Shown piece after piece: positions 1,659-29,940 of a stretch of 33,222 nt of DNA. The notes below the pieces were generated by a model that saw only the letters and a list, made by a program, of their open reading frames with translations, had not been told where the DNA came from and ran no database searches. The stretch is from contig JTLS01000085.1 of NCBI GenBank assembly GCA_000826855.1, positions 1 through 33,222 of the forward strand, read 5' to 3'. Each line of letters opens with the position of its first letter. Position 1 is the first letter of the stretch. The position numbers and the translations under genes were made by a program. Source of the stretch: Basidioascus undulatus. Taxonomy: Eukaryota.

Positions 1659-2380
1659 TCATGGTCTCCCTCCTTCGAAAGGCTGCGCCATCCCCCCGGA
1701 GCGGCCGCCCCCGCCCGGACTCCTGCTCCTGCTCCTCTGGCTAATCTTATCCCGCAGCACTTGTAGAACCTCTGCGCGCTCGGGCACAGGGGCCGACTGC
1801 GGCTCCAGAGCAGCATCGCGCGAGGCAGTAGAAAAGCGACGTTTGCGCGGGGGCGCGGGCGCGTCTTCCTCGGACTGGAATCCGGAGTCGCTGTCGGAGA
1901 CGAGGGTGGAGGAATGGTCCGAGAGGTCCGAGTGAGATGGCAGAGAACGTTTGCACGTGGTGGGGGGCGAGGCGGGGAGGATGGCAGCGCAGGGGACGGG
2001 GGGCGCTGGGCGGGTGGTGGTCCACATCGCGGCGAGACAGTTGAGTGCGTCGTGGCGGATCATTTCGGTGCGGAGCATGTCGAGGGCGGCTTGTCTCTGT
2101 CGTACAGGTTGCGACAGTCAGTCGCAATGAAAGCATAAGGCAGATTTCGAGAGCCCGCATCCTTCCAAGCATGCATGGCTCTGAAACGCACCTTGTCCTC
2201 CGCCTCCTTCGCAGCAAGCAATGCCAGAAGCATGTCCCTGTCTCCGTCGCCTTACATGTTGTATGACGCAACGATGTCGCTGAGGCTCGGTGTGGTGGGG
2301 CGTGTGAAAGAGCGCATTTGAGTGGACGCCGGATGAAGGCGGGAGTGGTCGGACAGTGGCGGCGAAGGCAGGTGGCTCAT
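1659..2380 (-). pseudogene. Paralog of the uncharacterised gene at 8608-9339, with an in-frame premature stop
   Basis: ATG 2380. PSLSDIVASYNM*GDGDRDMLLALLAAKEAEDK|RQAALDMLR: the TAA at 2252-2254 aligns to CAG (Gln) in the paralog. GT-AG intron 2097-2191 is at the same position as the paralog's intron. Shared downstream motifs AAILPxSP, KRR and PxRAxVLxxLRxKxSxRS. Confidence 0.75.
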
Positions 2381-3066
2381 GCGCGTTATCGGCAGTGTAG
2401 CGCTCGGTGGAAGAGGTGAGATCACAGATGCGGTAACGAGCAGACGGAAAAGGGGAAGTTGCATCTCCTTTGACACGACTCCCTTTTGCGCTCTTCTCGG
2501 CGGAAGGGTATCCGCATCATCCACGCCAGGAGGCCGAGGGAGGCCGCCCGAAAGAGGCACCCTGGCGTCTTGGCTCTCTGGAATTGGGTGCAGACCTGAC
2601 TGTCCACTATGGACCAAAAGGAGCCGCAAGAGTGCCCACTGCTATTCAAAGGAGATGCCAAGACCGAGGGGTCTGCGAAAATTGTCACAGTTCACATTAT
2701 TTTGGGAGGGTGCTGCAGCCGCTGCGTATTGTCAAACCACGCCGGCAGATACACCGAGAGGCCCAGGTCCGCCCCAGAGTTGTCGACTGATTTCCTTGTG
2801 CCCATTCTATGCAGTCAGATCCTTGGGCATTAGAATAACTGATGGTTATAGGCTCTCTTGCATGCAGCAACATAACGCTTTTGTTGAACGGCCGGCGCGT
2901 TATTTCAGACCATGCTAACGTGCGCTAAACTTAATCTGCGCTGCGCATGATGCCATTCTCTACCTCAGATAAGCCTGAGAGCACGCAAATTTTCTTCAAG
3001 TACACTTCTGAGCGTGGAACGTTGCAACGTGGACAATACACCCACATGTGAGCCTTTTTCAGATAC

Positions 3067-3721
3067 TCAAGCGAGCAGGCGGAGCGGTAGAAAGCGTTGA
3101 CCGTCGATAGGAGGGGGCCGACAGGCGTGCTTTACATGTCCAATATCGGATGCTGATTGAAACCTGAAGGCTTGGAAGTCCAGATTGAAGTGGAACTTAA
3201 TAGTAATCGGTTCTCTGAGTTCACAGGGGAGCTGGAGAGAGGCGCACTGCTGTTCGGAGTCCTCAAGGCTCATCAAGCTGAGAAATGAGGCTGGCCGCAA
3301 GAGGCGACATGCTGGCCACTCAATGCCTGCAACTGAGTGCCTAAATCTTTGACTCCAATAACACCATGTGAAAAGAACGATTGCTTTTGGTGCTTTCTGC
3401 ACGAAGTCAGCGAGTAACCATTCACGTTCCACGGTCGCAGTTTTTGGTCTCACACAGTTCAGCAGCTCAGCAACCGACTGAGCTGATTGGGCATAGAAAT
3501 TCAAATCCATAGAAATTCAAATCCATAGACATGTCTCTTTGGATATAGTAAGTCGCTAGTTGATGAGGCAAAACCCTTAGAGATATGTTCTTCGGTACCG
3601 GCAAACGCAAGGCTACTAGAGCTCCAATGGGATCCCCGTGCCCCGTCCAGCGGTGAGCGACATGATGACTACGAACAGCCTTTAGCTTTGCCTGAAAGAT
3701 GTGCCGTCTGTCTTGATGCAC
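3067..3721 (-). pseudogene. Candidate frameshifted gene of unknown family (about 212 codons if the 16-bp duplication is removed)
   Basis: ORFs 3467-3721 and 3067-3510 both contain MDLNFY and join into one frame when one copy of the 16-bp tandem repeat is deleted. No family motif recognised. Confidence 0.3.
3492..3528. repeat. Perfect 16-bp tandem duplication (catagaaattcaaatc)x2 plus catag
   Basis: Read directly: 3492-3507 equals 3508-3523. Confidence 0.95.
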
Positions 3722-4392
3722 ATCAAGTGTTAGCTACTGCCATCATCGGTCAAGGCTATTGGAAGGCGCCAGCATGCCGTACGGTGGGGTGTGTTCGCTT
3801 CCCTTTGTCATCGTCGCTGTCGCACAGTCACTCACTCCCTGCTCGCGCGTGACACGGTCGTTTCCCTTTCACTTGAATGAGTCTTGCATGAGCGACATCG
3901 GCTCAGAATGTCGCTCCAACCGTCTTGTCGCTCCCTTAGCGTGCAGGCTAGTCAACCTTGGAAGGGAACTTGGTCCAAGGGCTGCTTAGCGAGCATAAAG
4001 CCCGTGCAAGTGTACTGTAGTTGCTGTATTCTTCCCCCTCAGAAGCAGCCTGTTCAACAAAACAGAAACCCCTCACCCTACGTTCTCGGTCGCGATGCTT
4101 CAGAATTACCCCAAACGTAATCGCCCTTCTGCACCTCTCCGGCTCGACCGCAATCGGACGTCTCATCCACCTCCCTCTACCTCGTCTCTGCGAACATACT
4201 CCTATTCTGCGGACAAGCCCCTATACAGATTACCCACTACTCCGGCTGCCTCCGCGCCGCCGTCCGACGGAATCCTCCACCCACCTTCACCGTCGGCACC
4301 CGCACATCGCAACTGCAACCAAGCAACCGGCAGGGGAGCCTGGGGTGGGGCTTTGAATCGTTTGGCGTGCTCGGATGTGGGAAATCACCTTT

Positions 4393-4614
4393 CTCTTTTT
4401 ATTCTATTACTTCCCTCCTAGTACTGCTGGACACCCTTATATATTTATACTTAAATGTACAACCCGTTACGACATGCCTGGGTAATTGGCACAACGTCGC
4501 GTTCCTCTTTTTATTCTATTACTTCCCTCCCAGTACTGCTGGACACTCTTTATATTTATACTTAAATGTACAACCCGTTACGACATGCCTGGGCAATTGG
4601 CACAACGTCGCGTT
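4393..4614. repeat. AT-rich tandem duplication, unit about 111-112 bp, two near-identical copies
   Basis: Copy 1 is 4393-4503 and copy 2 is 4505-4614 (ctctttttattctattacttccctcc...cttaaatgtacaacccgttacgacatgcctggg.aattggcacaacgtcgcgtt). They differ by a few substitutions and a 1-bp indel. Confidence 0.95.
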
Positions 4615-5092
4615 GAGGGGCAGGCCTTGATATCCCAGGCCTCCTCGCAGACTAAGGTGAAAGTTGTATGAGATGTTAATACTGTTATTCCGAGCCTATG
4701 CGGATTCAATATAAACGGTAGTCAATACTCTAGAAGGTGGGATTAATCACCGGACTGGCGTTGCCAACAACTCGCTGCAGGGCTTCCTGGACGTCCACCT
4801 GATCTCTGCAAGCCGGCACGGCCTTGCGCATGCATCTGACTGGGATTACGCTGGTATGAAGAAGCCATAGTGCACCGAACGGCTTTCCAAGAGTGCCGAG
4901 GCCGGTCCCTACAAGAAAGCGGGCCGTCCTGGCCGCAAGTTGTGGTGCAGCTCCTGTCTATCTTTCCTGTACTGTCGCCGCTTGGAAAGCTGGTGACGGT
5001 GCTTACATAAATCACGACAACATCTGCTGTCAGAGGCCACTTTCTTACTCTTGCCTGGACAATCTACTTCACAGTCACCCGACACTTTGACG

Positions 5093-6764
5093 ATGAATCT
5101 TCAACCAGTTCTTCTCTTAATTTCGGCATGCGGGTTGGGTGTCTTGTGCTTCACCAACCTACTCAAGGCCTTTGACGGATCTGACCCAAACCTGGTGAGG
5201 CCCTTGTTTTGAGCTCGAGTCATGGCAAGTGTAGCACGGACATACTTCGATGGGCATTACTGTATGACTTTCCTGGTGCTATCCGCACTTTCAGGCCAGG
5301 ATCATCCTCCTTAATCTCACATAGACCTCCTCACGACTATATGGACGAACATTCAAATGGCCCGCTCCACCACACTCTGCGGTCTCAAGACCGCAGAGCT
5401 CAAGTTGGTCTACACGGATGCGGACCCGTCGAGGTACTGCAACGTGTGTGTGTGCCCTTATCGGGATAGAGTTTCTAAGTTCAAGAAGACTGGCTTACAT
5501 TGTCTCTATTACCCAGGGGCGCCCGAGTTGCATATATCGATGGTAGTTAGTGGATCCACTACACTGCCGGAAGAGAGGGCACCCTCGACAATCAACGCCT
5601 GCACGTTCTTGCCAGCGGGAACTCGCCATGGGATGACTTCGCCGTGGGATGACTTTACATATCAAGGCAAGTGTTCCCCGTTGCTGATGAGCTGAAAATG
5701 CACTTTAACCCTGTTCACACATTAGGCCGGATCGTCATACCCAACCGAGACGTTTGGAGTATCGACTCCACTATCTTGTTCACCAAGAGCGGCAACAGCG
5801 GCAACTAGTAGTTTACTCCTCGTGGGATGGAGACCGGATAGCGTAGGTCCTTTGTTGCCCTGAAAGCTCCCCTCACTCCCTTTGCATCTCTGACGGATGT
5901 CAGGCCTTGATCCACAGGAAGCTTCAGAATGCCTACACTGTCGGTGATGCTGTGAGGCTCTCGTGCCTGACGCTTTCATGGGAGCAGCCAGTAGCGTGAA
6001 CGAGGTGGTGGTACGTTTCATTGCTCATTAGTCGAGTAAAGGCAACCAAACCAACTGACTGAGCGAGCTTTCGATAGCTGGACTTTACTGTGGAGGATGC
6101 GCTTTCCTCGCCTACTCTGCATCCGGTTGCATGTAGGAGGGTTACAAGCTCGGCTTGCCCGAGATCACTGGTTCCGACCCCCTGATATCGAGCTCCTGGA
6201 CGAAGTACGATGAACCCATCTTTGAGTCTGCGAGTGGGTGAGTGACCTACTCAAAAGGCGAAGCTGTCCTCAGTCCTCGCTAAAACATGCTTCCTCTATT
6301 CAGGAACTACGGCTTGTGCAAAGTATCTAATTTTAATTGGAAAGAAATTAAAACTTACTTCTTCATTGTCAGCCGGGCCACAACGGATTTTCTTTGTGAG
6401 AATGACCGGATGGCTGAAATATCTCGTCTTCGACTCCCAGTTCATGACCCAGCTCCCGCAGAGCCCCGATGGCACTGAGTTCTGGCTCGTGCGTAGAATC
6501 GCTTTACCATGGTAGCATATCTCTGTACCGAGAATGAAAGCGGCATGCCTTTGGCACTATAATTGCAGGTCTACCACCCTCGTCTGAGGTGACCTGTGAT
6601 GGAACCCGTCGGACCATGGTTCAGCCTTTCCCATGGTAAGTAGAGACCCGACTCGTCTGCAATTGCTCCCCTATTTGAACTGCCATGGCAGGAACGACGA
6701 TGGAACACCGAACCTCGGAGAGCCAGTTTCCATCAGCAGGGACTTACCGGAGCCAGCTTCGTGA
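5093..6764 (+). pseudogene. Secreted glycoside hydrolase family 43 (alpha-L-arabinofuranosidase-like) pseudogene, introns retained
   Basis: Exon fragments in order: signal-peptide-like MNLQPVLLLISACGLGVLC, FTNLLKAFDGSDPNL, YFDGHYYLLTTIWTNIQMARSTTL..LKLVYTDADPSRYCN, APELH/YIDGS*WIHYTAG..DNQRLHVL..SPWDDFTYQGRIVIPNRDVWSIDSTIL, VYSSWDG, TLSWEQ/SVNE, FLAYSASGCM*EGYKLGL..GSDPLISSSWTKYDEPIFESASG, GHNGF, SPDGTEFWL|VYH, CDGTRRTMVQPFPW|NDDGTPNLGEP..PEPAS*. Stops at 5548-5550 and 6134-6136, plus several frameshifts. Confidence 0.9.
5623..5654. repeat. 16-bp tandem duplication (tcgccRtgggatgact)x2 inside the GH43 relic
   Basis: 5623-5638 versus 5639-5654 with one a/g mismatch. It duplicates the SPWDD codons and shifts the frame. 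Confidence 0.9.
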
Positions 6765-7110
6765 AGTAATAGGCCCAAAGAACCAACTAGCTCTCATTTA
6801 CCCATGTAACCATATTGTCATATTGCCTGTGCTTCTACTTCATTTTGACGAGCTTGCACTTGGCGCCATGAAGACATGTTCACCAAACGTGGATTTCCCA
6901 ATCGCAACTTTAAGCCGGATTATATCAGATTTCAATGCGTATCCTGCCAGTAGGGGTTAAACCTTGTGAACCAGGCAGAAGCGCAAAAACTTTGAAAGCG
7001 AGTCTTCCATCGACACTCGAGCCCTCGCCACCACACATGCCCTCCCTTCTCACTCCCTATGCGCTTTGCACCAGTGCCAGAAAGACCGGTACCGTCAAGA
7101 TAGGAAGGCA

Positions 7111-8065
7111 TCAGGGGGAAGATAGCAGAGTACACACCTTCTTGTGCTGTGGCCAGTCGGTCCCTGATGCACCGGGGTGCAGTAGACTGCGCCCTTGCAC
7201 GCGCCGCACAAGTTTCGGCATGCGACCCCGCAAACCTCGCATATCCAACCAATGAGCTCAAAGTGACCCTCAACTTTTTCACAAAATGTGTCGATCTTGC
7301 CGCGATCGAAAAGCATGCTGCGGTGCTCCACAATCCGAAGCTTGCTTCGAGCTTCTTCGAGCATGCAGATCCGTTCTTTGCGTGGCTCGCACCGCCGGTA
7401 AGAAGCGAGCAATAGGCGGATCTCTGGAGGAAAGCACGTCGACGGAACGTAGTGATCGGTATCATACTGAAGTCGAACAAGAGACTGTGCGGTCGTAACC
7501 ATCTCCGCAAAGCGCACGAAGCTGGCCACGACCGAGCCGACGTCGCTTCCTGGTGCCATCGTGTTCTCTACCGAAAATCTCACCTCCAGAGGTGAGGATG
7601 AAATGATGATTGTGACGTCGCTGCTGCAGTTGTGCACGAGTATCGTGTCGAGCTTTTGGACGGAGACTGAGGTGTCCGGAGAGCGATGCGCGTAAAATTG
7701 CTGCGGGAGACCCGAGCTATGGTTGCCAGAGCAGCATCGCGAACGTCATGAATCCCCGTCGAAGAGGCCTCCGACCCCTTGAGTATCACGGCATCCATCT
7801 CGGCGCGATCAGATTCGATCCAAGTCGGGCCCATGCTCACCGGCGTGCCAGACCAGGGTGTTCAGGCTGTATTGGACGACAGCAAGACAGTCGTTACCGA
7901 GTGAAAGCCTTCTCCCGGTGTCGAACAGTCCAAGACTCTGATGAAGAACTTCGAAATGGGATGGCAGCGAGTCAGATCAAGTTTTCCGTCCACTATCAGC
8001 GCCGAGCGAGCCCGGTCTGATTCGGCGGAAACGTGTGGGGGTCGGAATCGAATCGTGATGGTCAT
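7111..8065 (-). pseudogene. MYND-type zinc finger protein pseudogene
   Basis: C-terminal CEVCGVACRNLCGACKGAVYCTPVHQ-(1-nt frameshift near 7163)-TDWPQHKKVC matches the MYND pattern. Upstream pieces 7862-8065 and 7580-7840 share a frame but are separated by TGA at 7862-7864. A further frameshift lies near 7680. Confidence 0.75.
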
Positions 8066-8607
8066 GGAAGGCGCGAGTAGGGTTGAGGTGAGTATGAGTG
8101 CAGTACGATCGAATTGAACGGGGTTCTGATGCTTATATGGAACAGGCAGAGGAGATAAGGCAAGCGACTTGGGATCAAGCGGGGAGGTTGAAAAGAAGAG
8201 ATGGGAGAAAGGGGAGCACTTGGGGAAGACTTGGGGAGAAGGGAGAATGCGGATGCCCCTGGCCGATCTTCGCTCTCATTCCACTCCCGCTCGGCTGCGT
8301 TGAAGCAGGGTGGTATCAAAAAAGCACGCCCTTCATCTTTTTCTTTGCCTTCGATTGAGCTGCAACCGCGACATTGGTTCTACGGCCACAGAATGCAGAG
8401 TTCGCAAGCATCGTTTCCATTTATCTCAGTCATTGGGGCCTGCACTTGTCGGACTACGATTGCCTGCATACGACCTTCGCTTACCTGAACATCCCAGAAT
8501 GAGCAACTTTTGATGTCTCCCTTTCAAGGCGTACTGAGTCTGCAAGGCGGCTTGCGGTGCAGCTGGCCCACCCACATCGTCACAGAGCATGCCAACACAA
8601 AGGTTGT

Positions 8608-9339
8608 TCATGAAAACAACCCGGGGGGTTTATTTGGAAATGAAGATAATATCCTCCTGTCCGACTTCCTTTCCTGGAACCTGTCCTCTGACAACTCCTC
8701 TGCGCTCGTGGGACTGCCACTTCTGCGGCTGACCTTGACGCGCAACGCCGCGAGCACGTCGGCGCGGGTCGGAAACTTCTCAACGGAACGGCGGCGTTTC
8801 GATGCTGGAGCGGAATGAGGCGAAGATAGTCGAGAGGCGATAGAGGAAACAGAGCTGGACGGGGACGAAGCGGGCGAGGAGCTTTGCGAAGCCTCGTGGT
8901 CGGCCGCGTCCACGTCTGATTCGGGCGAGCGTTGGCGCTTGTGGACAGCGGAGGGAGATGGTGGAAGGATCGCGGCTTGCGCGCAGCAGTTGTAGTCCGC
9001 GGGGGTGGCTCGTTCGAAAGCTGCGAGACGAGCGCGCGCCTCGACGCGGAGCACTTCAACGCGAAGATTGTCGAGCGCGGCCTGGCGCTGTTGTACCACA
9101 AACCTAGGGTTTCAGCTCACAAACTAGGGAAGCAGGAAAATAAGAGGAAATGAACGTGCCTTGTCCTCAGCTTCCTTCGCAGCCAGCAGAGCCAGCAGCA
9201 CCTCCCTGTCTCCGCCGCCCTGCTCGTTGAACGCCGCCAGAATGTCGTTGAGGCTCGGCGTCGCACAGGGCGAGCGTGTATGAACGCTAAGCTGGAAGTG
9301 AAGCGAATGCGGCGGAGGCGGTAGTGGCGGAGTACGCAT
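8608..9339 (-). CDS. Uncharacterised two-exon protein with a conserved helical motif and a Ser-rich basic tail
   Basis: Likely ATG 9339 (MRTPPLPPPP..). PSLNDILAAFNEQGGGDREVLLALLAAKEAEDK|RQAALDNLRVEVLR joined by a GC-AG intron at 9088-9159, stop at 8608. Supported by motif and intron conservation with the paralog at 1659-2380. Confidence 0.75.
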
Positions 9340-10651
9340 GTTCTTTGTAGAGACGTCGTCGGCTTGGAGGTGAGGCGCGTGCACGGTGGACGAGGGGTAT
9401 GTCGCGGGATGGGGGAGCCGCTTTGGGGGAAACGCAGCGTCGTCAAGCTGCACTTCGCTAGGTTTTGTATGCGCTGGCGTCCCCTTTAGAAAGACTACTG
9501 GACCCCCTGATAGTGTTCCGAAGAATCAACGCCGTTCGTCTTGGCAACGGATTGCCAAGAGGCTGGTGGCATATTTTCGGCACCCCGGCCCATTGCGTGA
9601 GACCTGCTCGGCGGCTTTGGCACGAAGGGTCCGTACGTTCAATCAGTTGACGAAGAAAAAGCAAAACCAATAGTTGAAAGTGTGGGAAATTGGCATACAG
9701 TGGAGAGGTTGCCGGCAGTACAGTCTGCGGCAGCCGCAAGCGGTTGCACGTTCGTCTCACAGAGTTCGAGCTCTGCAAGCTTGTGCAGTAGCGATGCTTC
9801 ACGAATATCGACTTTGATGATTTAAAGTTGGGCTTATCTATGCATTTGGACTGTATGCGGGAAGAGGTCCATCCAAGGCTCGTAACAGATGCGTTGCGAA
9901 CCCGTAAAAGGCTGCCCGCTCGCTCATTCGCACTTGGTTTCGACACTTTACCGTGTTGTTACTACTCTCAAGTAACTTTGGCTCCATGCTCTTCTGATTT
10001 TAGGCGGGAGTACAATCGTTTCCCAGTGGCTCAAGGGCGCTTGCCTGTCCCTGAAAACGTTGCTACACCTGTGCAGCTACACGTGAACCGATCAAGACCC
10101 GAAGATATTGTCGTCTATGAAATAACGCGGAAATTCCATGACACCGAATCGCCCGGGACACCGGAGCGGACTTCTTTCCTCACCAGTTGGGCCTGCGCGC
10201 CGTCAGTCGCCTGCCTGCAGCGTTCTGCTTGAGCGAAGGAGTTTGTGAGCGATGCAGTGAACCCCCTGGCAATTCATGTTTGCGAACGCAATACACGACG
10301 AGCCGAACACAAGCGACGCTACACCGAGGCGCCAATTCAACCGGCAGGAGCGACCGAAGAGCCAAGAAGAGCGGGCGGTTGAGATGAGTTGAGGCCCCAA
10401 ACGCTCAGCGGCACTCTTTCGAAATGAATGTCGAGCTGGATGCGATCGAAAGACCAAATATGAATATGTTGAATGACAGAAACGCCGGTCCCGCTCGAAA
10501 AGTCAGTGCGTCCCTCGCCGCAGACGCACTCCATCCAACGCGCTCGTGTCCGTGAATTGCATTACCTTCCACCTCGCATCTACTGCCCTTCCAAATCTGT
10601 ACACCCTCCCACCCGACGCAACCCAACTCGCGCTCGGCCCCGCCCAGGCAT

Positions 10652-11967
10652 CTACTTCTTCTCCTCCTTCGGCGGCTCGGGCAGCTTGAAGGTCTCGGGC
10701 CGGCTCTCCGCGCCCGCGCCGACCTGCTCCCAGGGCGAGGTGGCGCCCTCGAAGTTGCTGGTGCGTCCCCGATCCTGCGTCAGCGCTGAGAGGAGAGGGA
10801 CAGGGAAGGGCGAGGAGGGGAAGTGTGCGGGGAGGGGAAAGGGAAGGAAGACGCACCGGAAGGCCTGCGTGAGCTGCAGCGGCTCCTGGACGACACGCTT
10901 CTTCTCCTCGTCGTAGCGGAGCTCGACGTAGCCCTGTCTCCCATCCCGTTCGTCAGCCTTCGTAGTTGGCTGATGGAATGGATGAGCGCAAGCCAAGACG
11001 CGCGACGCACGGTCAAGGGGAAGTCCTTCCGGAGCGGGTGGCCCTCGAAACCTGGGTGTGTGCGACACAAGAGTGAGTGGGAGACGGAGGAAGGGCGTGA
11101 GAAGGGGGGGTGAGGAGAGGGTGACGCACCGTAGTCGGTAAGGATGCGACGGAGGTCAGGGTGGTCGAGGAAGAAGATGCCGTACATGTCCCAGGCTTCA
11201 CGCTCGAACCTGTGAGGGAAAGGGGCGGAAGAGGCGTTAGGGGATGTTCCAAGAGCGTGGGGCGAAGTCGACGCGGGTAGACGAGGAAGGTTGAATCCGG
11301 CCCTTCCAACGCCGCTCTCCGGCCTACACCATCCCACCGCGCCAAATCCGCACGAACTCCACCCTTTCTCCCAGAAAGCAAGTTAGATTCTGGCACTCAC
11401 CAGTCCGCAGACCGGTACACGCCGGTCGCGCTAGGCACGGGGGTGACCTCGTCTGCGTAGGTCTTGACGCGAATGCGCGCGTTGTGGCGGACGCTGAGGA
11501 GGTTGTAGACGACCTCGAAGCGGTGGCTGCGGCTGGGGTAGTCGGCGCCGGAGATGTCCATGCACGCCTTGTACTGCGTGTTGGTGTGGTCGTGGAGGAA
11601 TGTGAGCGTGGGGACGATGCCCGAGGGCGCGACGTAGAGCGTGAGCTCGTCCTTGTACACGCTGTACTGCTGGACGAACTTGGGCAGGCACGAGGTGAGG
11701 TACCGCCCGAACGAGTGCAGCGGGTCGGAGAGGTGCGCAGAGTCCAGGGCCGGGTTCCGGCCGGCCGGCTCCTTGAAGGGGCCAGTCACCTCTTGGGCTG
11801 TTGGAGAGCGCATACACACCACATCAGCTATCCAGATAGCGGACGTAGTTGGGTGCGGGCTACCCACCCTGGCAGGACCGGGCGGAGGTGGACAGCGCGC
11901 GGATGGATGCGGCGCGCGAGGCGGACGCGCGGGCGACGGAGCGGATGGCGAAGCGGGCGGCGGACAT
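10652..11967 (-). CDS. NDUFS3: NADH:ubiquinone oxidoreductase 30 kDa subunit (complex I), 6 exons
   Basis: Presequence [149 protein letters not shown]. All five introns splice in frame. Confidence 0.97.
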
Positions 11968-12899
11968 GATGAGGGGAGGTGGTATGTGGTTGGTGAAGCT
12001 ATGGGTGAGTAGGACGGTCAGTTCCTGCTCCGTGCTGCCTGCGCTTCGCTGATGCGAGAAGACGGTAAAGGCACAGCGGCTTAGCTCGCCTGGAGGCAAC
12101 TGATGCGCCCCGTACACCCAAATGCGTGTCGTATAGACCTCGCGAGTAACACCACCCAAGTTCCCTGAGATGCAGCTGCGCCCACGGCCCGGGAGGACTG
12201 CGAGCGAAGCAGGAAGACACTCACGATTGAGAGAAGGAAGCGGGGTCTCGTCAAGCTTAAGGAGCGTTCACGAAGCGAGAACTACGCCCAAAATTCACCA
12301 GGTTAGTGAATTCTGCGCGTTTTTACGTGTTGCGAAAGTGCTATGTACCGAGCGAGAGCGAGAGGAGGATGACGGTCGAGATGCAGGCGCGAGCGGAGAG
12401 CGCTTGAAGCGAGCCTGCCGATTGGACGGGGCAACCCTACGTAGTCTTAGTTGCTTTGCTCGGCGCCAAACGACGAGGTGCAGATTGCCCATCAGGTTGC
12501 AGCTGCTTTCCACCAGCTGATTTCGATAAGAAGCCAATACGAGGCTCCATGAAGTCTAACCATAGAACATAAAGATAAGTCCAAGCACCCGTCCATAAGC
12601 TCTGGTCTGCATGCCGTAAGGCAGGATGCAGCACCCACCAGACACTGTATGCGCCATTGCTCGAGCTTCATTGTTCTCCGTGTATGCGTCAGCTCGAACA
12701 AAGTCCAAACGTTTCTACACCTCGAGGGGGCAAGCGGGATTTAGCCTTATGCCCTGAAGGTCGCAAGCGTGCCTGCCACGTACCGCTGTGACACAGCCTC
12801 GTCAGCGTTCCGTGAGGCCGCTCGCTTGGTTGCCCCTTCCTTCGCTCTTCCATCCCATCGCTCTCTGCACCGCTCAAGCACAACCCCCCCCACATTCGT

Positions 12900-13682
12900 C
12901 ACAATTAACGACATGTTCGATCCGACGAGCGGTGGACCGACGCTTTCTACAATTATATCACACCGTGCAGCTGCACAGCCCGGAGGAGGTGTGGTAAGAC
13001 CGGCCGACGGGCGTCGCATGAATATGCCATACTCAGAACGCTCCCTGCGCACCCCCACCTTCGGTGCCCTTTATCCCGTTCCCGATGGGTACGCAATGCG
13101 GTTCTGAGACGAAGGGACGGAAGACCAGCTCGCCGGAGGGGACCCGGCACCGCTGCGAGTGGGTCGTTTCGCTTTGCGAAGTCGTTGCTCACATTCACAG
13201 TCACGGCGTCGTCCACAGCTATATGAAATACGGCAACATCCTGCTCGAAAGGACCTCGCACTCTCTGCGTTTGATTGCCTTCGACCGCGCCCGGCGCCTC
13301 AAGCCTGATGGCTCCCGGACTGTGTGTGCGACAGAGCCTTTTCGAACTGCACTCCGAGCCGGCGGAGTGGATGACCCCTGAACTCTGCGATGGGTTTGAT
13401 CGTTACACGACAGCGTACGACATTTACTCTCTCAGTGTTCGATATTCGAGATCATGACTGGCGGGATGTTCGAGCCGGACGCTAACGACTCCAAAGCATG
13501 GATACTCTGGCTCGCAAGTACCCGCGCTTCTCGAGACCTATGGCTGGCTCTCGGACACATGCTGCAGGATGGATCCAAAGGAGAGACCTACCGCCGAAGA
13601 GGCTGTCGTGTGGGCAAAGCTGGAGCTTGCGGCTGTCGAGGCGGCAGAGACACAGTTGGGCTTCACGGACTCTGGGGGGTGA
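12900..13682 (+). pseudogene. Protein kinase pseudogene (5' limit uncertain)
   Basis: LCEVVAHIHSHGVVHSYMKYGNILL (catalytic loop, Asp replaced by Tyr), LRLIAFD (DFG-like Asp lost), EWMTPELCDGFDRYTTAYDIYSL, IFEIMTG, DPKERPTAEEAVVWAK. The motifs lie in different frames and there is a stop at 13105-13107. Confidence 0.85.
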
Positions 13683-14130
13683 ATGAACGGGATCCTGAAT
13701 TTGGGATTGTCGTGGTCGAGGTCTGGCATGGAGGAGTTGCACGTTCCTTGTCTTTGCCATTCCGCGCAATAGTCTTGACTGTGTCCGCCGTCACAACACC
13801 TGCCCGCAGTGCAGCGACTGTAGCAATAACGTTTTGCCGTGAAACACAAGCCACAGCAAGCATCTTCTAGTTTCCTTTGGGTTTTATATTGAATGCATAT
13901 GTTTCGGTGGGTGATCAAAACTCTTGTCAAAGATTCGTGCGTCCGCGTCTCTGATGAAACGTTCGTAACTACACGGGTTCTGCTCGTCCGTCCAGACTGC
14001 ACACCACTTGTCTTCTGACTTCAGCACACAATGCCAATTTTCTAATTTTTTTTTTTGGCTGTAGCATCATGTTGGAACCGACTACATGGTATCCCAGTGT
14101 CCAAAAGAAGGCGTCTGCAAAGTGGATTCG

Positions 14131-14820
14131 TCAACCCCTGAAAGCATCCAAACCCCGCAGGGTCTCTCCCCAGATCCTATCCAACTTCTCCCACATAACG
14201 GGGCAACTAATCCCCAAAGCAACACAATTCGACCAGACACCATGCAGCTCCCCCGCGCGGCGAATCCACTCTTCTCGTCCTCCCTGCAGCGGCGCAATCC
14301 GCTCTCCCACTAGGAGGCGTTCCAATAGCGACATAGCTGAGGGAGCGGGGACGACTATGTCCACTGCTGGGAGTCCTGCCCCTGGAGACGGCGGAGGAGG
14401 AAGGACAGGCAGCGCAGACGCGGCTGCTGCGAAGCGCAGGCCGTCGACGGGGAGGTCGAGGGTGTTGCCTGTGCCGGACGTCGAGGAGCGAATACAGAAG
14501 AGGTGCGTCCTCGGAGGGAGGTAAGGCGCAGCGGAAAGCGTGTCGAGCACGAACGCCGGCGGGATGTTCGGTGGGATCCCGAACGGCGCGAGCGCGGCGG
14601 GGTGGACGTCGCGCAGCTTGACGCGGGGGAGGCGGAGGGGTAGGCGGAGCGTCGTGGGTGGTGTTTTCTTGGAATGGGAAAGTGGACGGTTATGCGTGAC
14701 GAGAATGCTGCGCGGGTGGCGGGGGTAGGGGTGGGTTCGGTTCGGGAGCTCTGAGAGCGGACAGGGTCGACGGCGCCGGAAGCGCAGGTGCGTGGGCGAG
14801 GCGGGGATGGCGAGGCTCAT
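14131..14820 (-). CDS. clp1: Clp1 (clampless-1)-like protein, intronless, 229 aa
   Basis: N-terminal LRLPLRLPRVKLRDVHPAAL..NIPPAFV, central THLFCI..LPVDGLRFAA..LP..LPAVDIVVPAP, and C-terminal ELHGVWSNCVALGISCPVMWEKLDRIW, which matches the HGxWxNxxALG..W...W pattern I recall for basidiomycete Clp1 proteins. Uninterrupted ORF. Confidence 0.7.
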   Translation of the reverse strand: MSLAIPASPTHLRFRRRRPCPLSELPNRTHPYPRHPRSILVTHNRPLSHSKKTPPTTLRLPLRLPRVKLRDVHPAALAPFGIPPNIPPAFVLDTLSAAPYLPPRTHLFCIRSSTSGTGNTLDLPVDGLRFAAAASALPVLPPPPSPGAGLPAVDIVVPAPSAMSLLERLLVGERIAPLQGGREEWIRRAGELHGVWSNCVALGISCPVMWEKLDRIWGETLRGLDAFRG

Positions 14821-14860
14821 GCTGGTGGATGAACGCTTGGTGAAGCGAGATGAAGAGACC

Positions 14861-14870
14861 TTATATTTTA
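14861..14870 (-). promoter_or_regulatory. TATA-like element upstream of the Clp1-like gene
   Basis: Minus strand reads taaaatataa about 40-50 nt upstream of ATG 14820. Confidence 0.3.
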
Positions 14871-16860
14871 GTTGAAGATAAAACCGACACGTTCAGACAG
14901 AGATGGTCTAGCCTCTGCAGTCTTTATGTCTCCAGAGAGTGACCAGGCATCAAAGCTTGAAAGGCGGAAAGGCAAATTGTCCTTTGTCTCCATCCTTTAT
15001 CGCTCATTCAAGAAAGTCTTTGAGAAAGTCGGAGCTGCCCAAATCGACAGCTTGAAAGGACAGCGAGCCAGCCAGCGAACGGGCCTTTCAAAACGCAACA
15101 AAGAAACGCGGCGCGCACTGGACGCGGGACTTGGATGTCTCCGCTGCAGTCTCCACAAGTGCCACCACTCCTTGTCCCTTGTTCTTTGTGCCAGAATTTT
15201 ATAGGGGATCCCTAAGCATCCTAGTCCTACTGCGTTTCGAGAGCCGCACCGGGGATGCTGTTCCCAGGACCAGACGAAGCAATGTAATCGTCAGCAGTAA
15301 CGCATAAGCCACTACCTAGCCTCCCTCGCATCAACGGAACCTGCTAGAAAAAATTACTCCCAATATAGAAAACTCAACGGACTGGGATGAGGAAAGCACC
15401 CACCGCCTGGCTTCTCACTCAGGCTGAAACATCACTATGCACAGCAAGAACACAAGTGGACGGCACAGCAAGTACTGTGCACGGTCACCGAAAGCCACAC
15501 AGACAACATTCCCTTCTGTACAACACACGTCTTTCTCTCCTCAGGCCAGGAAAGCGGATACGATCATTCCTCCGAATGCTCCTAGCTAGACGGAGGACGT
15601 GCATAGACCCGCTCTTGTCTGACAGTTCGTCCCCTCAGGAACCGAACACCTGCACAATGTCTAATAGCAGGGTGTCTTGTAGCATTCGGGACTCGAAAGG
15701 AGCGAGTGCGAGAGGCATGGGCGGGCGTGTTTCCCTCCATGCTTGAGAGCGGGCACTCACCAGCGGCCGTACCCTGAAAAGCCAGTCTCATCCTCATCCC
15801 TATCGGATTCTTCTGCCTATACCTGGTGACTTTTACAAGCTTGCATGTAGATGAACCCAACAACAACAAAAGCCACCTGGACGCCAGCTTCTGCTGTCGC
15901 TCCTGCGACGCAGCCCGCCCGTGTTGAGATTTCCCTCGCACGCCCGCGATCTGCTCAGGAAGGTATACCAGCCGGGCTGGAGGATGGCAGTCCTCCACAA
16001 AGTGCCGGGAACGAACAGTGTCCGAACTCATATCCCAGTGAGGACAGCAAGTCGCTGCCTGGTCTGCGAAAGAAACCGTGGCCCGCTCACCTTAGTCTGC
16101 GATTCCGCCTAAGCGCGCAACCGCTGATGAGCACGTAACCTCGCCCAAGTTAGCGCGGGGCGAGCGTCCGCCCCTGCGCGCCCTCGGACAGTGTTGCGCA
16201 CCGAGCACTTGGCGAAGCCTTGGCAACATGGGTGCAGACTGCAGTCTGAGTTCGCCGGGAACGACTACAAATGCAGAAGGCGTAGTTGCGCTTGTGAGTA
16301 ATTACTGCTCTCCAGTCCGATGTGTGGGCGCTGAGAGCGTGCCGGTTCCGTCACGATCTTCTCCGCCAGGATTGGAGATTGCCGAGGGCCAGGGAGGGCT
16401 GCGACGTGCAATGCGCGTTGAGCGATACGCGAGATACGAGATGCGAAGCTAAAGTTATGTTTGTTCGATCCCGTGTCCGGCGGATGTGAGGAAAGAGAGG
16501 TCCGGCGGTGCGGGAGCTGATGATATGGATAAGTGGGCCAGCCAGTGAGTGAGCGGGTGGGTGAGCGATGTGCGCGTCCAAGAGCAGCTCGGAGCGAGCG
16601 GCATGAGACCAGGGGAGGCGAGTGATACCTTGATCGAGTGAGGGACAGAGACTGCCCCGGCGGGTGATAGAAAGATTGAGCGTGCGCGAAAGCCGCCTCT
16701 ACCCACTCCCCCTCCCGCGCGCAACCCACTCCACACCAGCAACCCACGCTTCAAACTTAAAGAAACCTGGTATCGCCCCGCGCTCTCCTCCTCCCAAGCC
16801 GGGTCCATGCTCCTTCCCTGCGCCTCCTCCCACGCGGCAAGCATCCTGCCTGGCGGCAAA

Positions 16861-17508
16861 TCACTCGCCCACGAGCTTCTGCACGCGCTTGAGGATCGAG
16901 TCTTTCTCGGGGTCTGGGTGGGGCGGGTTGAAGGTGGGAAGTCAGGATGGGGGTTGCGGGAAGGAGGGGAGCTAGAGGGAAGAGGTGGACGAGAGGAGGA
17001 GAGCGGGAGGAGTGAAGGAGGAGGAGGGGAGGGTAAGAAAGATAGAGCAGGACAACGCACCGTACGGGTGTTCCTTGGACGGGATCTCCAGCAGCGCTGG
17101 GAACGGCTGGGTATACCTGTCCACCATCGGCCTGATCTTCTCGGCGATCTGCCCCCATCCCACCATCTCATCAGCGTCCCTCCCGTTCCCTCTATCCCTC
17201 ACTCTCCTGCACGCACATGCTGGTTAATTAACAGAATCGCAACATCCTTCCGCTCGGTGAACTCCTCAAACGCCGACTCGATGACGGACGTCTGCGTCTT
17301 GGTGTCCACGATGAGAAAGTTCTTGCGCCCCTTGTCGACATGCCCGATGCCCGCGAGGAGGAGGCCGGTGATGGAGTCCTGTGTCGAGGGAGGGGTCAGG
17401 GGAGTGGGGGTAGCTAGAGTGGGGACGGGGAGGGGAGGGGTAAGGTACCTCGTCCCCGATTGCTGCGAGGAGGGTGCGGTCTTTGATGCCTGCTACTGCG
17501 GAGGACAT
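16861..17508 (-). CDS. VMA7: V-type proton ATPase subunit F, 4 exons
   Basis: [113 protein letters not shown]. Confidence 0.97.
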
Positions 17509-17734
17509 GCTGAATGTGAGAGTGTAGATGAGTGTGGTGATGTACAGTTGGATGACGATGTGGTCGAGAGGGGTCGCTGGGCTCAGTTGCATCCGGGGTG
17601 CGAGCTTATCGCCGACACAGCCTACTGTATTCGACCTCACAATGAACTCAGCCTCAATTCCGAAAGGCAGAGCGCTGCACTTGGAAACGCGCCTTCTGAT
17701 CATCATCACCTCCTGCATCCAAACCAATCTCACA
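17509..17734. promoter_or_regulatory. Probable bidirectional promoter (VMA7 / SPF27)
   Basis: Only 226 bp between the divergent ATGs at 17508 and 17735. Confidence 0.55.
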
Positions 17735-18801
17735 ATGTCCAACGCGCATCGGGACGACTTGGACGTGCAGCTCGACGCGCTGCCATACCACGACAAGGAG
17801 CTCGAGACCACCCCAGGTGCGCCTCCCTTCCTCCCTCTCCTTCCTCTCCCACTCCCAGCTCACCCTCCCTCCTCCCGGCAGGCCTCCAGCAACGCGCCGC
17901 AGCCGAGATCCAGCGCGAGCTCGCCTCCGCCCCGAAGCTAGGCCTCACCCTCCCCCCAGACGCAGACGACTTCCTTTCCGTGCGTCTCCCCCTTCCTCCC
18001 TCCTCCTCCCCTCTCCTTCCTAACACCCACCCTCCCGCACCGCAGGCCCACCCCCTCCTCCACGCCGAGCTCTCCCGCGTGCGCGCCGGAGAGCCCCTCC
18101 AGGGGTTCGACCCCGCTCGGTACAGCCTCGCCGCGCCGGAGAGCACGTCCGAGGAGGAATGGACCCGCGCGCTCGAGCTCGCGGGCGCCAACATCGAGCA
18201 CCAGGGGATTCGTCAGACTAACCTCGACCTGCTTTCGTCGCTGGGTGCAAACCACTGGAGACTGCACAATTATGTGCTTGAGGCGGACGCGGCGCGCGTG
18301 GAGAAGGAGTTGGAGCAGTTGCAGGAGAGGGTGGCGGATGTGAATCGGGGGAGGAAGGCGCAGCAGGTGCGTTCGTGTTCGGTTCTTTGCCTCTTCCTAT
18401 ATCCGTCCTCTTGCTTTCTTTCAACCCGTCCCATTGCCACCAATGCTCCTCCCTCTCCTCCCACCCTCTCCGTCCCCCCGTCCCGTTCTTCCACCCAACC
18501 CCCGCCCTCGCTTCTCTCTCCCCTCCCTCCTCTTCCCATCCCCCTCCCGACCACCTCCTACCCCTATCTCTTTTTGCGCCTTCCTCACCCCCTCTGTTAC
18601 CTCATTTGCAGCGCATGCTGACATTGCCTCCCTTGTGAAACGCAGACCCAAGCCGGCGCCCGCCTCCACGCCCTCGAGTCCCGGTGGACGCAGCTCGTGT
18701 CGCACACTTTGCAAGTGGAGGTCGCGAACGCCGCGCTCGAGGCGGAGTTGGGCGCGCTGCGGGCAAGGGAGGCGGGGTTGCGGGCGGAGCTGGGCCTGTG
18801 A
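17735..18801 (+). CDS. SPF27: Pre-mRNA splicing factor SPF27/BCAS2 (Cwf7, Prp19 complex), 4 exons
   Basis: LDALPYHDKELE..|LQQRAAAEIQREL, HPLLHAELSRV..GFDPARY, EEW..A..NIEHQGIRQTNLDLLSSLGANHWRLHNYVLE..VNRGRKAQQ|TQAGARLHALESRWTQLVSHTLQVEVANAALEAE. Stop at 18799-18801. Confidence 0.92.
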
Positions 18802-18837
18802 CGTGGAAGTGAAGAGAAGGGGGAGGGAGGTGTAATA

Positions 18838-20154
18838 TTAGCTGTATTTTATGCGGGCGCGATTTGGGAAACGAGTGCTAGATGGCAGGGAGCGGTCGGG
18901 GACTCGCTCGCCATGCTTGTCGAAGGCGGCTCGCGAGCGTCCGGGGTCGAGGACGGGGACGGGGACGCTTCGCTCGCTCGCTCGCTTTCGGAGCATCCAA
19001 TCCAATCCCACCACACTCTCCTTTGGTCGCTCGCCACTCCTCCCTCCAATCCCTCGCAGCTCTCGCATCCCCAACCTCCTCAATCCTTCTTGGGGCATAG
19101 TCGACCATCGTCTTCCATCTCGCTCACACTGACGCCGCGGTCGCTCAGACCGAGCTTTCGCGCACTGATACGTTATTGATACCACAACGTCGCAGCGCAC
19201 CCCGCCATGTTCGATTCCTTGAGTGGCCGTCGTTTGACTCTCTCCTTGCACGCTTACGATCGCAACCAGTGATTTGCAATTTAGGCTGTCCCCGCCAATC
19301 GCTTCGTAGGCCTGGGCACGGACAGTCTTCGTCACGAGCACATAACTACATGAGCAGCGACCTCGAGGTCTTGTGCACAAGCCAAGTACAGTACTGCAGC
19401 GTCGTGCGCTCACTTGTGCGTGAACAGGAGCACGCAGAGCGCGATGCCCGCCACCACAAGCAAGCCCACGACGAGCCACGGCGCCACCGCGAACGCGGCG
19501 GCGCCCATCGCCCCGCCTGCGGCGAAGCTCTGCAGGAGAGCGTACAGCGACTTCTCCAGTATGAACCCCCCGAACACATAGGATGCGTATGCCGCAGCCC
19601 AGGACCCTATTCGGGGGCACAGAAGAACGATGTGAGCTCGAGTGCCACGGGAATGGAGAGAGGGGGACTGAACGTGCCTTTTGCGACGCCCGCTACGGTA
19701 AAGCCTAGACAATATACGATAGCGGAAAACGCGAACCAGAAGACGAAGAGGGCGGCGATCGTAGCGAGGACGCCGATGGAGAGTTGCACGCGGTGCGCCC
19801 ATAGCCAATGAGCCGCTGGCTCCAGCGCATGGGCGGTTTTGTGATCTGGGCGAAATTGATCCTTCCGTAAGTCTGGCCGAGTCGGTGGCAGAAGAAGGGC
19901 TCGCAGCTATAGATGCTCACAGACTGCAGTGAGCGACTTGGCTAGGTTGTGGACGGAGGGCTGGAGCGTCACCGCTGGAATGTGCAGCTGATCGTAAGCC
20001 CATGGTAGCCAGCTGGAGAAATTCTCGGAGAACTAAGAACGGGTGGGGAGACTTTACCGAAGCTGGCGACGCCGCCCTGGAAGGCCTTCAACGGTCTATG
20101 GACCTGCGCATGAATGGCAGCGACTCCGGGTAGCATCGCAACGTCAACATGCAT
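18838..20154 (-). CDS. IFI6/IFI27 (ISG12)-like small membrane protein; both termini uncertain
   Basis: Spliced core QLSIGVLATIAALFVFWFAFSAIVYCLGFTVAGVAK|GSWAAAYASYVFGGFILEKSLYALLQSFAAGGAMGAAAFAVAPWLVVGLLVVAGIALCVLLF contains GFTxxGVxxGSxAA...SLxAxLQS. GC-AG intron at 19607-19677. An upstream ATG near 20171 is out of frame, so a 5' lesion is possible. Confidence 0.6.
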
Positions 20155-20401
20155 ACTGCAGTCGCCAGCATGATGAAGTGAGTATTTGGGCTCACCAATC
20201 CGAGAGCCCCCCAACTGGAATCATGAATGCGCTGCGATCATGAAGGAAGGACGACTGTCACTTTCGCAACAGACTCGCCTGCCAAATCCAAGCGCACTCT
20301 TGTTCATCTACTCATGTATGGGCAAGGCTACAAAGAATGTGCATAGGCCATCTGTCGGCAAAGCTACAAGGGAATGTTCATAGGTCATTTGTATCATTAC
20401 G

Positions 20402-20955
20402 TTGCGCGCTCACTTGGGCGTAAAGAGGATCACGCAGAGGGCGACGCCCGCGAGCCGGAGCAAGCTTACGACGAACCACGGCGCCACCGCGAACGCGGCG
20501 GCGCCCATCGCCCCGCCTGCGTCGCGAGGACGCCGATGGAGAGTCTCACGCGATGCGTCCAAAGCCTGTGTGCCCCGCTATCTCGAGCGCAAGGGCCGTT
20601 TTGTCGACTGAATGAAAACCATTGCCCTCTAAGTATGTGATTCGGTCGTTGAGTCAAGAAGAGTGGATAGACTCGCAGCCTGCCCACCCTGCGGTGACTG
20701 GACTGGCCAAGGCGTGGACGGAGGACTAGACTGTCACCACTGGGGTAAGGGGTCGACCGTAAGGCCATGCGAGCCAACCGAGGGAAGTTCCGAAATAGAA
20801 GGTGGGACCGACGTACGGAAGCTGGCGACGGTCCCATGGAACGTCTGAAACGATTGCTGAACGAGCGCAAGGAGAGCAGAGCCTTTCGAAAGCTCCGCAA
20901 TGCTCAGCAATGGGCACTGCGATTTCCAGCATGATGGAAGATTTGGCCTCACCAA
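20402..20955 (-). pseudogene. Tandem duplicate of the IFI27-like gene with the core domain deleted
   Basis: 20476-20521 is identical (46 bp) to 19476-19521, then jumps to sequence matching 19761 onward (about 240 bp deletion). CAG>TAG stop at 20726-20728. Homology continues to about 20955 versus about 20200. Confidence 0.85.
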
Positions 20956-21519
20956 CATGAGACCAGACCCCTTTTACTCCGTGAAGACCATTGAAATCCG
21001 CTATCTTGCCCCCGAAGACATGCTGAATCGGCGCACAACCTAGCCCTAGGAAGTTGGGGATGGGGATCATGGCCTAGTGCTCTGAGGGTTCCCTAGACGA
21101 AAATGGAGGGTAGTGACTGCAAATAGGGAAGATAGCTGAGTTCCACTTTTCAGCTTTGATTCGGGGCGCGAGTAATGCAACGTGCTGTTCAGACGTTCGC
21201 GCGCTCGCAAAGACAGCGCGGGCAGCGGACTCCGACGGCATTGGGTTCCTTTGAAGACGCCTCGAACTCCGTCAGCGTAAGTCACAGGTTGCGAAGCTTA
21301 TCAAGCAGCATGGTGCCGCTCAGCTCTGGGAAAGTACACTAGCAGTCTTCTGAGAGGGGCGCGGGGGCACCCGCGAATGACAGCTGCTCACGCCGCTACT
21401 AGCGCACTCGCTGGCAACCCTACGAGCGATTCTGTCCAACCATATCATTTTTCCCTTTCGAAGAAGGGACTCGAACACCTGCCTTTTAAGGTGGCGGAAC
21501 ATACTGTGCACTCCAGCTA

Positions 21520-21880
21520 TTGTGACGGCTGGACTGCCCGACCGGGCGTTTTCGCTACGGAGCAGCCGGGTGGATAGCACCGGAAATCTGAGACGGATTC
21601 GATCCCTACACGAAAGCTTGCAATTTCTACTCTTTTGTACTCTCTGGGTGTGATGATCTTCGAGATCATGGCCCGGCGGGCTGTTCGAATGCGACACCAA
21701 CAGGGCTACCAAAAACACGTTGGCCGGCAAGCAGCCACGCTTCTCCGGAGCTTGAATGGATTGACGCCCCAAGGAATGCTTCAAAATTGACTCAAAGAAT
21801 CAAGCTGACTGCAGAGGAAGCTCTCATTTGGGCCGAGTGTGGGTTTGCGGCTGTCGTGTCGGGGGCGTGGCTGGACCGTG
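21520..21880 (+). pseudogene. C-lobe fragment of a second copy of the 13 kb protein kinase
   Basis: GWIAPEI*DGFDPYTKACNFYS/YSLGVMIFEIMA/GGLFECD...LTAEEALIWAE..AAV aligns with EWMTPELCDGFDRYTTAYDIYSL..IFEIMTGGMFEPD..PTAEEAVVWAK..AAV. Stop at 21589-21591 and an imperfect 10-bp duplication at 21628-21647. Confidence 0.8.
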
Positions 21881-22299
21881 AGGCCGGATGGTCGAGTACC
21901 TTTTTTATGAACTGGAATAAAAGTTCGGTAACCAGTATTTACCTCAGCTTTCAGCGAAGACTGCTGACATCAAGAGTTATGGACGTTGACCTTGAGTACA
22001 AGAGCGACGAGTCCTGTGTGCGGAGCATGATGAACAAAATGCTTTGGTGAGCCGTTGATTTACTGGATTGAGAAAGAGAACTGGAGAAATTTCTGTCATC
22101 CTTTCGGCACACTGGTGTAAATGAAACACGCAACATGCGTTATGGGACACAACTACAGAATACAAGAAGCTCGCCCAAGGTAAGGCAAGAAGCGCTACAG
22201 CAGGTGATAATCAGGCGAGCAATCGAACACAAGAAAGCAGAGCAGCAACTCGGCCAGCCGAATCAGAAGCGTCCTTTTCCAAACCGTCTCTGCGTCCCC

Positions 22300-22859
22300 C
22301 CACGCGAACGCAGGCTTGAGGACCTCCTTCGCGAACTGCTCGGGCGTCGAGAACTTGACGCCGAGGTCGGCGAGCTCGGGCGACGGCTGCGCCTTGCCCT
22401 CGTACATGTCGAACTCAGCGTGGAACTGCTCTGATAGCTATTGAGGATCGCCTTGACGGACGCGCCGAGGTCGTGGCCGATGTAGATCCTCGCCATGACC
22501 TGGCCGGCGGGACCCATCGTGTTGAGGACGAGGCCGGAGCCTTCCTCCTGGATGAGCATGAAGGTCGTCAGGTTCTTGATGAACTGTGACAGCGAGAAAA
22601 TCAAGCCGGAGTAGGAGCACCCAGGAACAATGAAGACAGGCGCACTATCAAAGGCCTTCTCGAGGCTTGCCTTGTCCTTGAAGTCGCGCTGGACGACCTC
22701 GCAGCCGAGCTTCTTGACCGCCTGCGACTTGTCCGACGACGGGTCGCGCGCGACGGCGTGAACGTCGAAGTTGCCCAAAGCCAGGAGCGCCTTGATCACG
22801 GAGGTGCGTTGGTTGCCGGTGGCCCCGAGGACGGCGACGGTGCGGTTGTTGGGGGACAT
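22300..22859 (-). pseudogene. NmrA-like / atypical SDR NAD(P)-binding protein pseudogene with internal deletions
   Basis: MSPNNRTVAVLGATGNQRTSVIKALL (third Gly of GxxGxxG replaced by Arg)..VHAVARDPSSDKSQAVKKLGCEVVQRDFKDKASLEKAFD jumps straight to SAPVFIVPG/FIKNL, then HDLGASVKAIL, then a different frame MYEGK..LGVKFSTPEQFAKEVLKPAF. About 180 codons versus about 300 typical for the family. Confidence 0.8.
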
Positions 22860-29800: not shown

Positions 29801-29940
29801 TGGACACGTCTAAGTTTGCCGGTCATGAGCGTGGATCTCCAGACGGGCTATTCGCATCAGTTACCTAGATCCTTTTGTTTGATCGAATACACATCATTAA
29901 AGTGTACCAACGGCAAGGTCGTGGCGACGGTGGACGACAT
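26827..29940 (-). CDS. 5'-nucleotidase family protein (calcineurin-like metallophosphoesterase plus 5'-nucleotidase C-terminal domain), many exons
   Basis: VHFNDVY, LFSGD|VFNPSVESSVTRGTHMVPVLN..LGNHDH|DFG, PWLLSN, VGVIGLVEK|DWIAT, IALTHSRLPN|D, IFGGHDH, VKSGTDF, ICGGSLRGD, ILPFQDP|IVVLEL..DALE..YPAQEG|RFPVFSG, YKVVTREYM|AQGYDGY. No signal peptide seen. Confidence 0.92.

Follow-up and report, generated by a model that had tools for sequence, protein, structure and literature searches.

Decayed accessory genes among intact core genes on a contig of Basidioascus undulatus, with similar decay elsewhere in the genome

Pseudogenization that accompanies a change of host or lifestyle has been described in Cladosporium fulvum (PMC3510045), where broken carbohydrate-active and other accessory genes in an otherwise working genome are read as the trace of an earlier lifestyle. 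Dispersed pseudogenes with fewer exons have been reported from the oomycete Peronosclerospora sorghi, where they are ascribed to retrotransposition (PMC9997571), and the non-recombining regions of Microbotryum are described as losing optimal codons (10.1101/2021.07.20.453045). The present study concerns a stretch of 33,222 nt from Basidioascus undulatus (JTLS01000085.1, here called the window), which constitutes an entire contig (C2822) of a single haploid assembly of 32.1 Mb in 2992 contigs, and in which seven decayed accessory genes, here called relics, are interleaved with intact core genes. The window resembles C. fulvum in having carbohydrate-active and other accessory genes broken in a genome that otherwise works, P. 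sorghi in having probable pseudogenes among conserved single-copy genes across the genome (many being non-syntenic there), and the mating-type regions of Microbotryum in being basidiomycete DNA with accumulated deleterious change.

The reading that we favour, and regard as reasonably probable, is that decay is genome-wide, that it combines the death of dispersed duplicates with the loss of plant-carbohydrate enzymes, that its products are kept by slow deletion, and that the window samples it at a relic-rich place. All lesions were called from the assembly sequence of this one haploid genome. The seven relics, each at the position given in an initial annotation and all within 1659-22859 of the window, are:

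1659..2380, minus strand: relic 1, an uncharacterised paralog of two exons, interrupted by one in-frame stop (2252-2254).
5093..6755, plus strand: relic 2, a full-length GH43 arabinofuranosidase-like gene with 9 introns kept and stops at about 5550 and 6136.
7050..8065, minus strand: relic 3, a MYND-family gene with a TGA at 7862-7864, a frame change near 7700-7745 and a 1-nt deletion in the finger near 7160.
12914..13680, plus strand: relic 4, intronless kinase 1, with 6-7 frameshifts and the catalytic-loop Asp lost (Pkinase E 5.8e-9).
20400..20955, minus strand: relic 5, small membrane-protein copy 2, its core removed by a deletion of ~235 nt relative to the neighbouring copy 1.
21500..21870, plus strand: relic 6, kinase 2, a C-lobe remnant of the family of relic 4, with 1 stop and 3 frameshifts.
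22195..22859, minus strand: relic 7, an NmrA-like gene that has undergone two large deletions and a Gly to Arg change in the nucleotide-binding loop (Pfam E 6e-16).

Five of these genes (GH43, MYND, the two kinases and NmrA) carry multiple lesions; the initial annotation had described all seven in that way, which does not hold for the uncharacterised paralog, with its one stop, or for the membrane-protein copy, with its one deletion. The GH43 relic aligns at 59% identity with a GH43 protein of Agaricales (residues 2-322 of 323), the group that supplies its best matches, and its assignment follows from PDB 3akf (E 4e-4), from PF04616-bearing fungal proteins (tblastn E 1e-42) and from full-length homology of the AbfII type; we take it to belong to GH43 subfamily 26. 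Eight frameshift calls and two exonic stops were counted in it, two further stops falling in introns and being left uncounted; two of the frame breaks are tandem duplications of 16 and 9 nt, and among the eight frameshift sites a single one falls in a run of four. In the MYND relic, where Pfam zf-MYND is matched only at E 0.034, two frame changes were found by eye, and the two upstream lesions are presumed ones, located in an N-terminal half of weak homology (E 0.03). The membrane-protein copies are IFI27-like by our assumption; no Pfam hit to IFI27/Ifi-6-16 (PF06140) was obtained at E 0.01 on their separate exon frames.

Six of the seven relics have paralogs, a point that the initial annotation had not taken into account, and much of the decay therefore appears to be birth-and-death of duplicates. 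Relic 1 is 49% identical to an open copy at 8608-9342, and a copy of it on contig C2423 lacks the stop; relic 6 is 65% identical to relic 4 in DNA sequence; and the NmrA relic has lost ~440 and ~230 nt relative to a paralog on contig C2488 (L036), and is probably recent, because its GC content at third codon positions (GC3) is still 0.86.

Decay of the same and of other accessory families was found elsewhere in the genome. With PF01753, 97 matches were obtained, spread over 94 contigs; ten of the matches have a stop inside the finger. The 30 best MYND loci, after removal of four that belong to other MYND types, were scored over their last ~116 residues with a leave-one-out profile (family scores 96-241 vs 29-50 for shuffled sequence), and 17 of the 26 carry a stop or frameshift there, although part of the frameshift calls, which rely on low-identity profiles, may be alignment noise. 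Among 31 P450 loci on separate contigs, inspected over at most the last 330 residues each, seven are clearly broken, two are doubtful and 22 are without lesion; among nine other NmrA-like loci, three are broken by eye, four are predicted to be intact and two are unsettled. Both close kinase paralogs are broken (2 of 2), a more distant homolog (L091), broken by eye but not by the aligner, having been left out of the counts. The sole GH10 xylanase locus found (L220, contig C2255, 800-2500) shows, by eye, two stops, at least three frameshifts and a changed Trp in the catalytic motif. A GH13 alpha-glucosidase relic (L226, contig C2900, 1690-4400), in which a stop replaces a conserved Trp and two frameshifts occur, surfaced in control DNA, which also held a multi-lesion methyltransferase relic just under its cut-off. 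The earlier proposal that accessory genes decay here with slow removal of DNA is thereby supported, and on a genome-wide scale. C. fulvum is described as repeat-rich, with a handful of broken genes per family, whereas here retroelements are few and in two families the majority of the sampled members is broken. Three dispersed P450 paralogs (L204, L206 and L207; 83% identity) carry no lesion, and recent duplicates can therefore survive.

The remaining genes of the window are:

1..668, minus strand: MDJ1-like DnaJ gene (gene model), truncated in its 3' part at the contig boundary; no lesion seen.
8608..9342, minus strand: open paralog of relic 1, with a GC-AG intron.
10652..11967, minus strand: NDUFS3, intact, 267 codons, GC3 0.94, single copy.
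14131..14820, minus strand: open 229-aa gene of no Pfam family, with a paralog on contig C2699 (L001) at 75% DNA identity and with the same stop.
16861..17508, minus strand: VMA7, intact, 120 aa.
17735..18801, plus strand: SPF27/BCAS2, intact, 218 aa.
19410..20200, minus strand: small membrane-protein gene, copy 1, its 3' part open.
23821..26286, minus strand: RPD3 histone deacetylase, no lesion.
26827..29940, minus strand: 5'-nucleotidase-like gene, no lesion; start not fixed.
30710..33222, minus strand: BCK1-like MAPKKK, truncated in its 5' part at the contig boundary; no lesion.

Core-gene names other than SPF27 are presumed from sequence features (NDUFS3, VMA7, RPD3, nucleotidase and BCK1) or, for MDJ1, from a motif. 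Splicing yields a complete product for NDUFS3, VMA7 and SPF27, and neither stops nor frameshifts occur in RPD3, the nucleotidase gene or the BCK1 and MDJ1 parts, in agreement with the initial annotation, which had reported lesion-free splicing for all of these but MDJ1. Approximately 7.6 kb of core coding DNA contains no lesion, vs 10 in ~1 kb of the GH43 relic on the same contig. The two open accessory genes (8608-9342 and 14131-14820) had been overlooked at first; the latter forms, with its paralog on C2699, a family of two dispersed, conserved copies. An AT-rich tandem duplication of ~111 nt (96% identical) occupies 4385-4614 and has no other copy in a genome search. The introns have the donor consensus GTGCGT, which together with the STE3 receptor marks a basidiomycete.

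The density of the relics, on which the initial annotation had laid stress, is less firmly established than their presence. Control DNA was drawn from a random sample that comprised 40 contigs, one at every 75th contig number and each limited to its first 10 kb (284,875 nt in all), and from interior 20-kb stretches, those used being gene-poor ones picked for their larger gaps; Pfam-visible relics were sought in stop-free frames of ~70 aa or longer. The window gaps contain two such relics in 18.9 kb (148 frames). The random gaps, examined at alternate sampled loci (~87 kb; 600 of 611 frames), gave six genes above the cut-off, four of them intact-looking, one a reverse transcriptase and one, a doubtful relic, with a single frameshift in a G run. 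In 40.7 kb of interior gaps (three of four stretches, 293 frames) the GH13 and methyltransferase relics were found, while RPL37, a Sir2-like gene, DHFR and a peptidase in those stretches are not relics. The window is thus probably denser in relics than average (2 per 19 kb vs 3 per 128 kb, ~4.5-fold), but the difference is not significant (binomial p ~0.13, by hand), and the window was chosen for its relics. Its coding fraction over 1659-22859 is 11.4%, a value reached by three of 20 random loci of at least 8 kb and by one of the four interior stretches; such fractions are lower bounds, because the self-trained gene finder overlooks low-GC3 intact genes such as STE3, and 'not predicted' was never scored as 'broken'. 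The control rate, applied to ~60% of 32 Mb, corresponds to some 450 Pfam-visible relics genome-wide, and perhaps to ~1500 relics in all, the method seeing two of the seven in the window; both figures carry several-fold uncertainty.

Intact genes fall into two codon classes (L052, L059, L085, L092), core genes with GC3 ~0.85 and accessory genes that are rich in introns and close to the background in GC, and it is the latter class that the self-trained finder overlooks. A low-bias gene model recovered one of five intact test genes and was discarded; an amino-acid filter did not single out the known relics, and all-against-all tblastx and blastx of the sample gaps gave too little to match. Many sampled contigs (L048-L087) stop inside GC-rich genes, so that breaks in the assembly seem to fall within coding DNA.

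Depletion of CpG or TCG, as a context-specific C to T signature, is the mark of decay by methylation or by a process like repeat-induced point mutation. No such depletion was seen in the gaps (CpG observed/expected 0.96-0.97, TCG rho 1.01-1.06), and gap composition is alike in window and sample (GC 0.549 vs 0.547; CpG observed/expected 0.97 vs 0.96). The density of paired splice signals is likewise equal in window and sample gaps, at 0.95 per kb, which is barely above simulation. The GH43 relic itself has a GC of 0.52 and a CpG value of 0.77.

The manner in which relics arrive is suggested by one interval. SPF27 is the neighbour of NDUFS3 in 30 of 80 metagenome NDUFS3 loci (many of them redundant, with lineages unlabelled), head-to-head at a distance of 239-458 nt in 26 and tail-to-tail in four. 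In the window the two genes are still head-to-head, yet lie 5768 nt apart (11967-17735), and between them are kinase relic 1, the open duplicated gene and VMA7, which was met in none of the 80 metagenome loci. Kinase relic 1 would therefore most simply be an insertion into an old divergent pair, and some relics would thus be insertions. MDJ1 was rejected as a synteny marker, its matches in metagenome loci spanning the J domain only, and the closest metagenome NDUFS3 exon is 70% identical. Introns are kept in the GH43 (9), GH10, GH13, NmrA and P450 relics, and the intron loss of retro pseudogenes was not seen; the kinase family, intronless in all close copies, is uninformative on this point. 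As most examined relics keep their introns and RVT_1 has few matches (18 on 14 contigs), copying at the DNA level is indicated, which sets these relics apart from those described in P. sorghi.

On the favoured reading of genome-wide decay, accessory and lineage-specific families (MYND, intronless kinase, small proteins, NmrA, P450) would spread as dispersed or tandem duplicates made at the DNA level and would settle between core genes, where most copies, not being held by selection, would gather stops, small indels, short tandem duplications and deletions. Some genes with no detected spare copy would be lost outright, in particular the arabinoxylan pair GH43 and GH10, a loss suggesting that less plant wall polysaccharide is used. 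Slow deletion would keep the dead copies, whose ages appear mixed (NmrA GC3 0.86; GH43 GC 0.52), and core genes would remain under normal purifying selection. Loss of plant cell-wall enzymes, a mark of reductive evolution in obligate biotrophs and symbionts, was found in both families searched, GH43 and the only GH10 found being broken. As to broad loss of metabolic families, the 22 lesion-free P450 loci fall within the range of 14-27 given for non-Armillaria biotrophs in a published study (PMC4633277).

Several observations weigh against this reading. The 22 P450 loci without lesion are the majority; only one of 11 SDR loci is broken (ten of 16 loci, from scoring 18 of 120 candidates, and one from the sample, the frameshift calls at L211 and L215 having been discarded for their positions at alignment edges); and a GH3 glucosidase, a sugar transporter and an ADH show no lesion. 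No copy of the window's families was seen in 398 kb of sample, the Pfam count makes the window look denser in relics than the genome, though not significantly, and the MYND calls may be noisy in part. The failure to find an intact GH43 or GH10 comes from a loose search of a 2992-contig assembly: PF04616 gave no match in the genome, and the window's own GH43 relic also escaped that search. The initially suggested trophic shift has some support in the dead GH43, GH10 and GH13, but full host dependence does not, since 22 of 31 P450 and 10 of 11 SDR loci are free of clear lesions.

A bolder version of the favoured reading, which we hold only tentatively and think possible rather than probable, is an early, pseudogene-rich stage of reduction like that of newly host-restricted bacteria, in which a thousand or more intron-bearing relics, some 100 MYND genes and the kinase family dying together, and an arabinoxylan pathway already gone would follow a recent move, by a transposon-poor haploid basidiomycete, away from plant polysaccharide to host-fed life. 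Sodalis glossinidius, reportedly an example of early-stage genome erosion in a bacterial symbiont with near 50% pseudogenes, likewise keeps many recognisable pseudogenes among intact core genes; it is, however, a bacterium, and the fungus considered here retains broad metabolism and an intact pheromone receptor.

Among the alternatives, ordinary birth-and-death at a rate normal for the lineage, with lifestyle unchanged and the window in the upper tail, fares best and is still fairly unlikely. It accommodates the paralogs of six window relics, the many whole accessory genes and the 436 pseudogenes given for Fusarium graminearum, a normal pathogen (PMC12311193), but it does not readily explain why most sampled MYND and kinase members are broken, why about a quarter of P450 loci are, or why the two arabinoxylan enzymes are both dead and no other copy of either turned up.

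Suppressed recombination across the region, as on an extended mating-type chromosome, was among the causes proposed in the initial annotation and appears improbable. The window does lie in the gene-poor tail, its Pfam-visible relic rate is nominally ~4.5 times that of the control, and linkage is conceivable in so fragmented an assembly; the expected marks in GC3 and transposons are nevertheless lacking. In Microbotryum degeneration is regional and affects the codon use of all resident genes, neither of which is seen here: GC3, a proxy for optimal-codon use, is 0.76-0.94 in the seven window core genes vs quartiles of 0.82, 0.85 and 0.88 (5-95% range 0.77-0.92) in 76 codon-biased sample genes, accessory genes alone are affected, and relics occur across dozens of contigs. 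No high-copy match was found for 1200-16400 and no transposon Pfam hit in 148 frames, although short-read collapse could hide copies. STE3 is a single intact low-GC locus in a gene-poor stretch of another contig (C2, 20001-53245; L092, L176-L179); it adjoins the GH3 glucosidase, and nearby genes are, by their sequence features, presumably RasGAP-, VPS41- and PUF-like.

Gene loss after hybridisation or genome doubling, which was also raised at the outset and to which the 32-Mb assembly and paralogs at 68-75% DNA identity might speak, is very improbable, and is contradicted by searches for second copies of NDUFS3 (one match in the genome) and STE3 (one locus), by the failure of a DNA search with 1200-16400 to give a collinear second block, and by the paralogs, which are scattered and for the most part broken as well. 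Error in sequencing or assembly, for which the fragmentation and the one control gene with a single shift in a G run might argue, is the least credible explanation: core coding DNA on the same contig is lesion-free, the lesions include nonsense codons and tandem duplications as well as deletions that span hundreds of bases, and just one of eight GH43 frameshift sites is in a run of four.

A literature search, beyond whose reach most subscription papers lay, found no basidiomycete report of comparable genome-wide relics. In fungi, gene loss is as a rule deduced from genes that are missing, whereas here the lost genes remain readable, and at differing ages. The relics will inflate gene counts for the assembly, and low-GC3 intact genes are easily mistaken for them. 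Lying between core genes of partly conserved order, they make the order of loss, the rate of deletion and the former diet of the fungus directly measurable, and they would be of greater interest still if the copies in related species prove to be intact.

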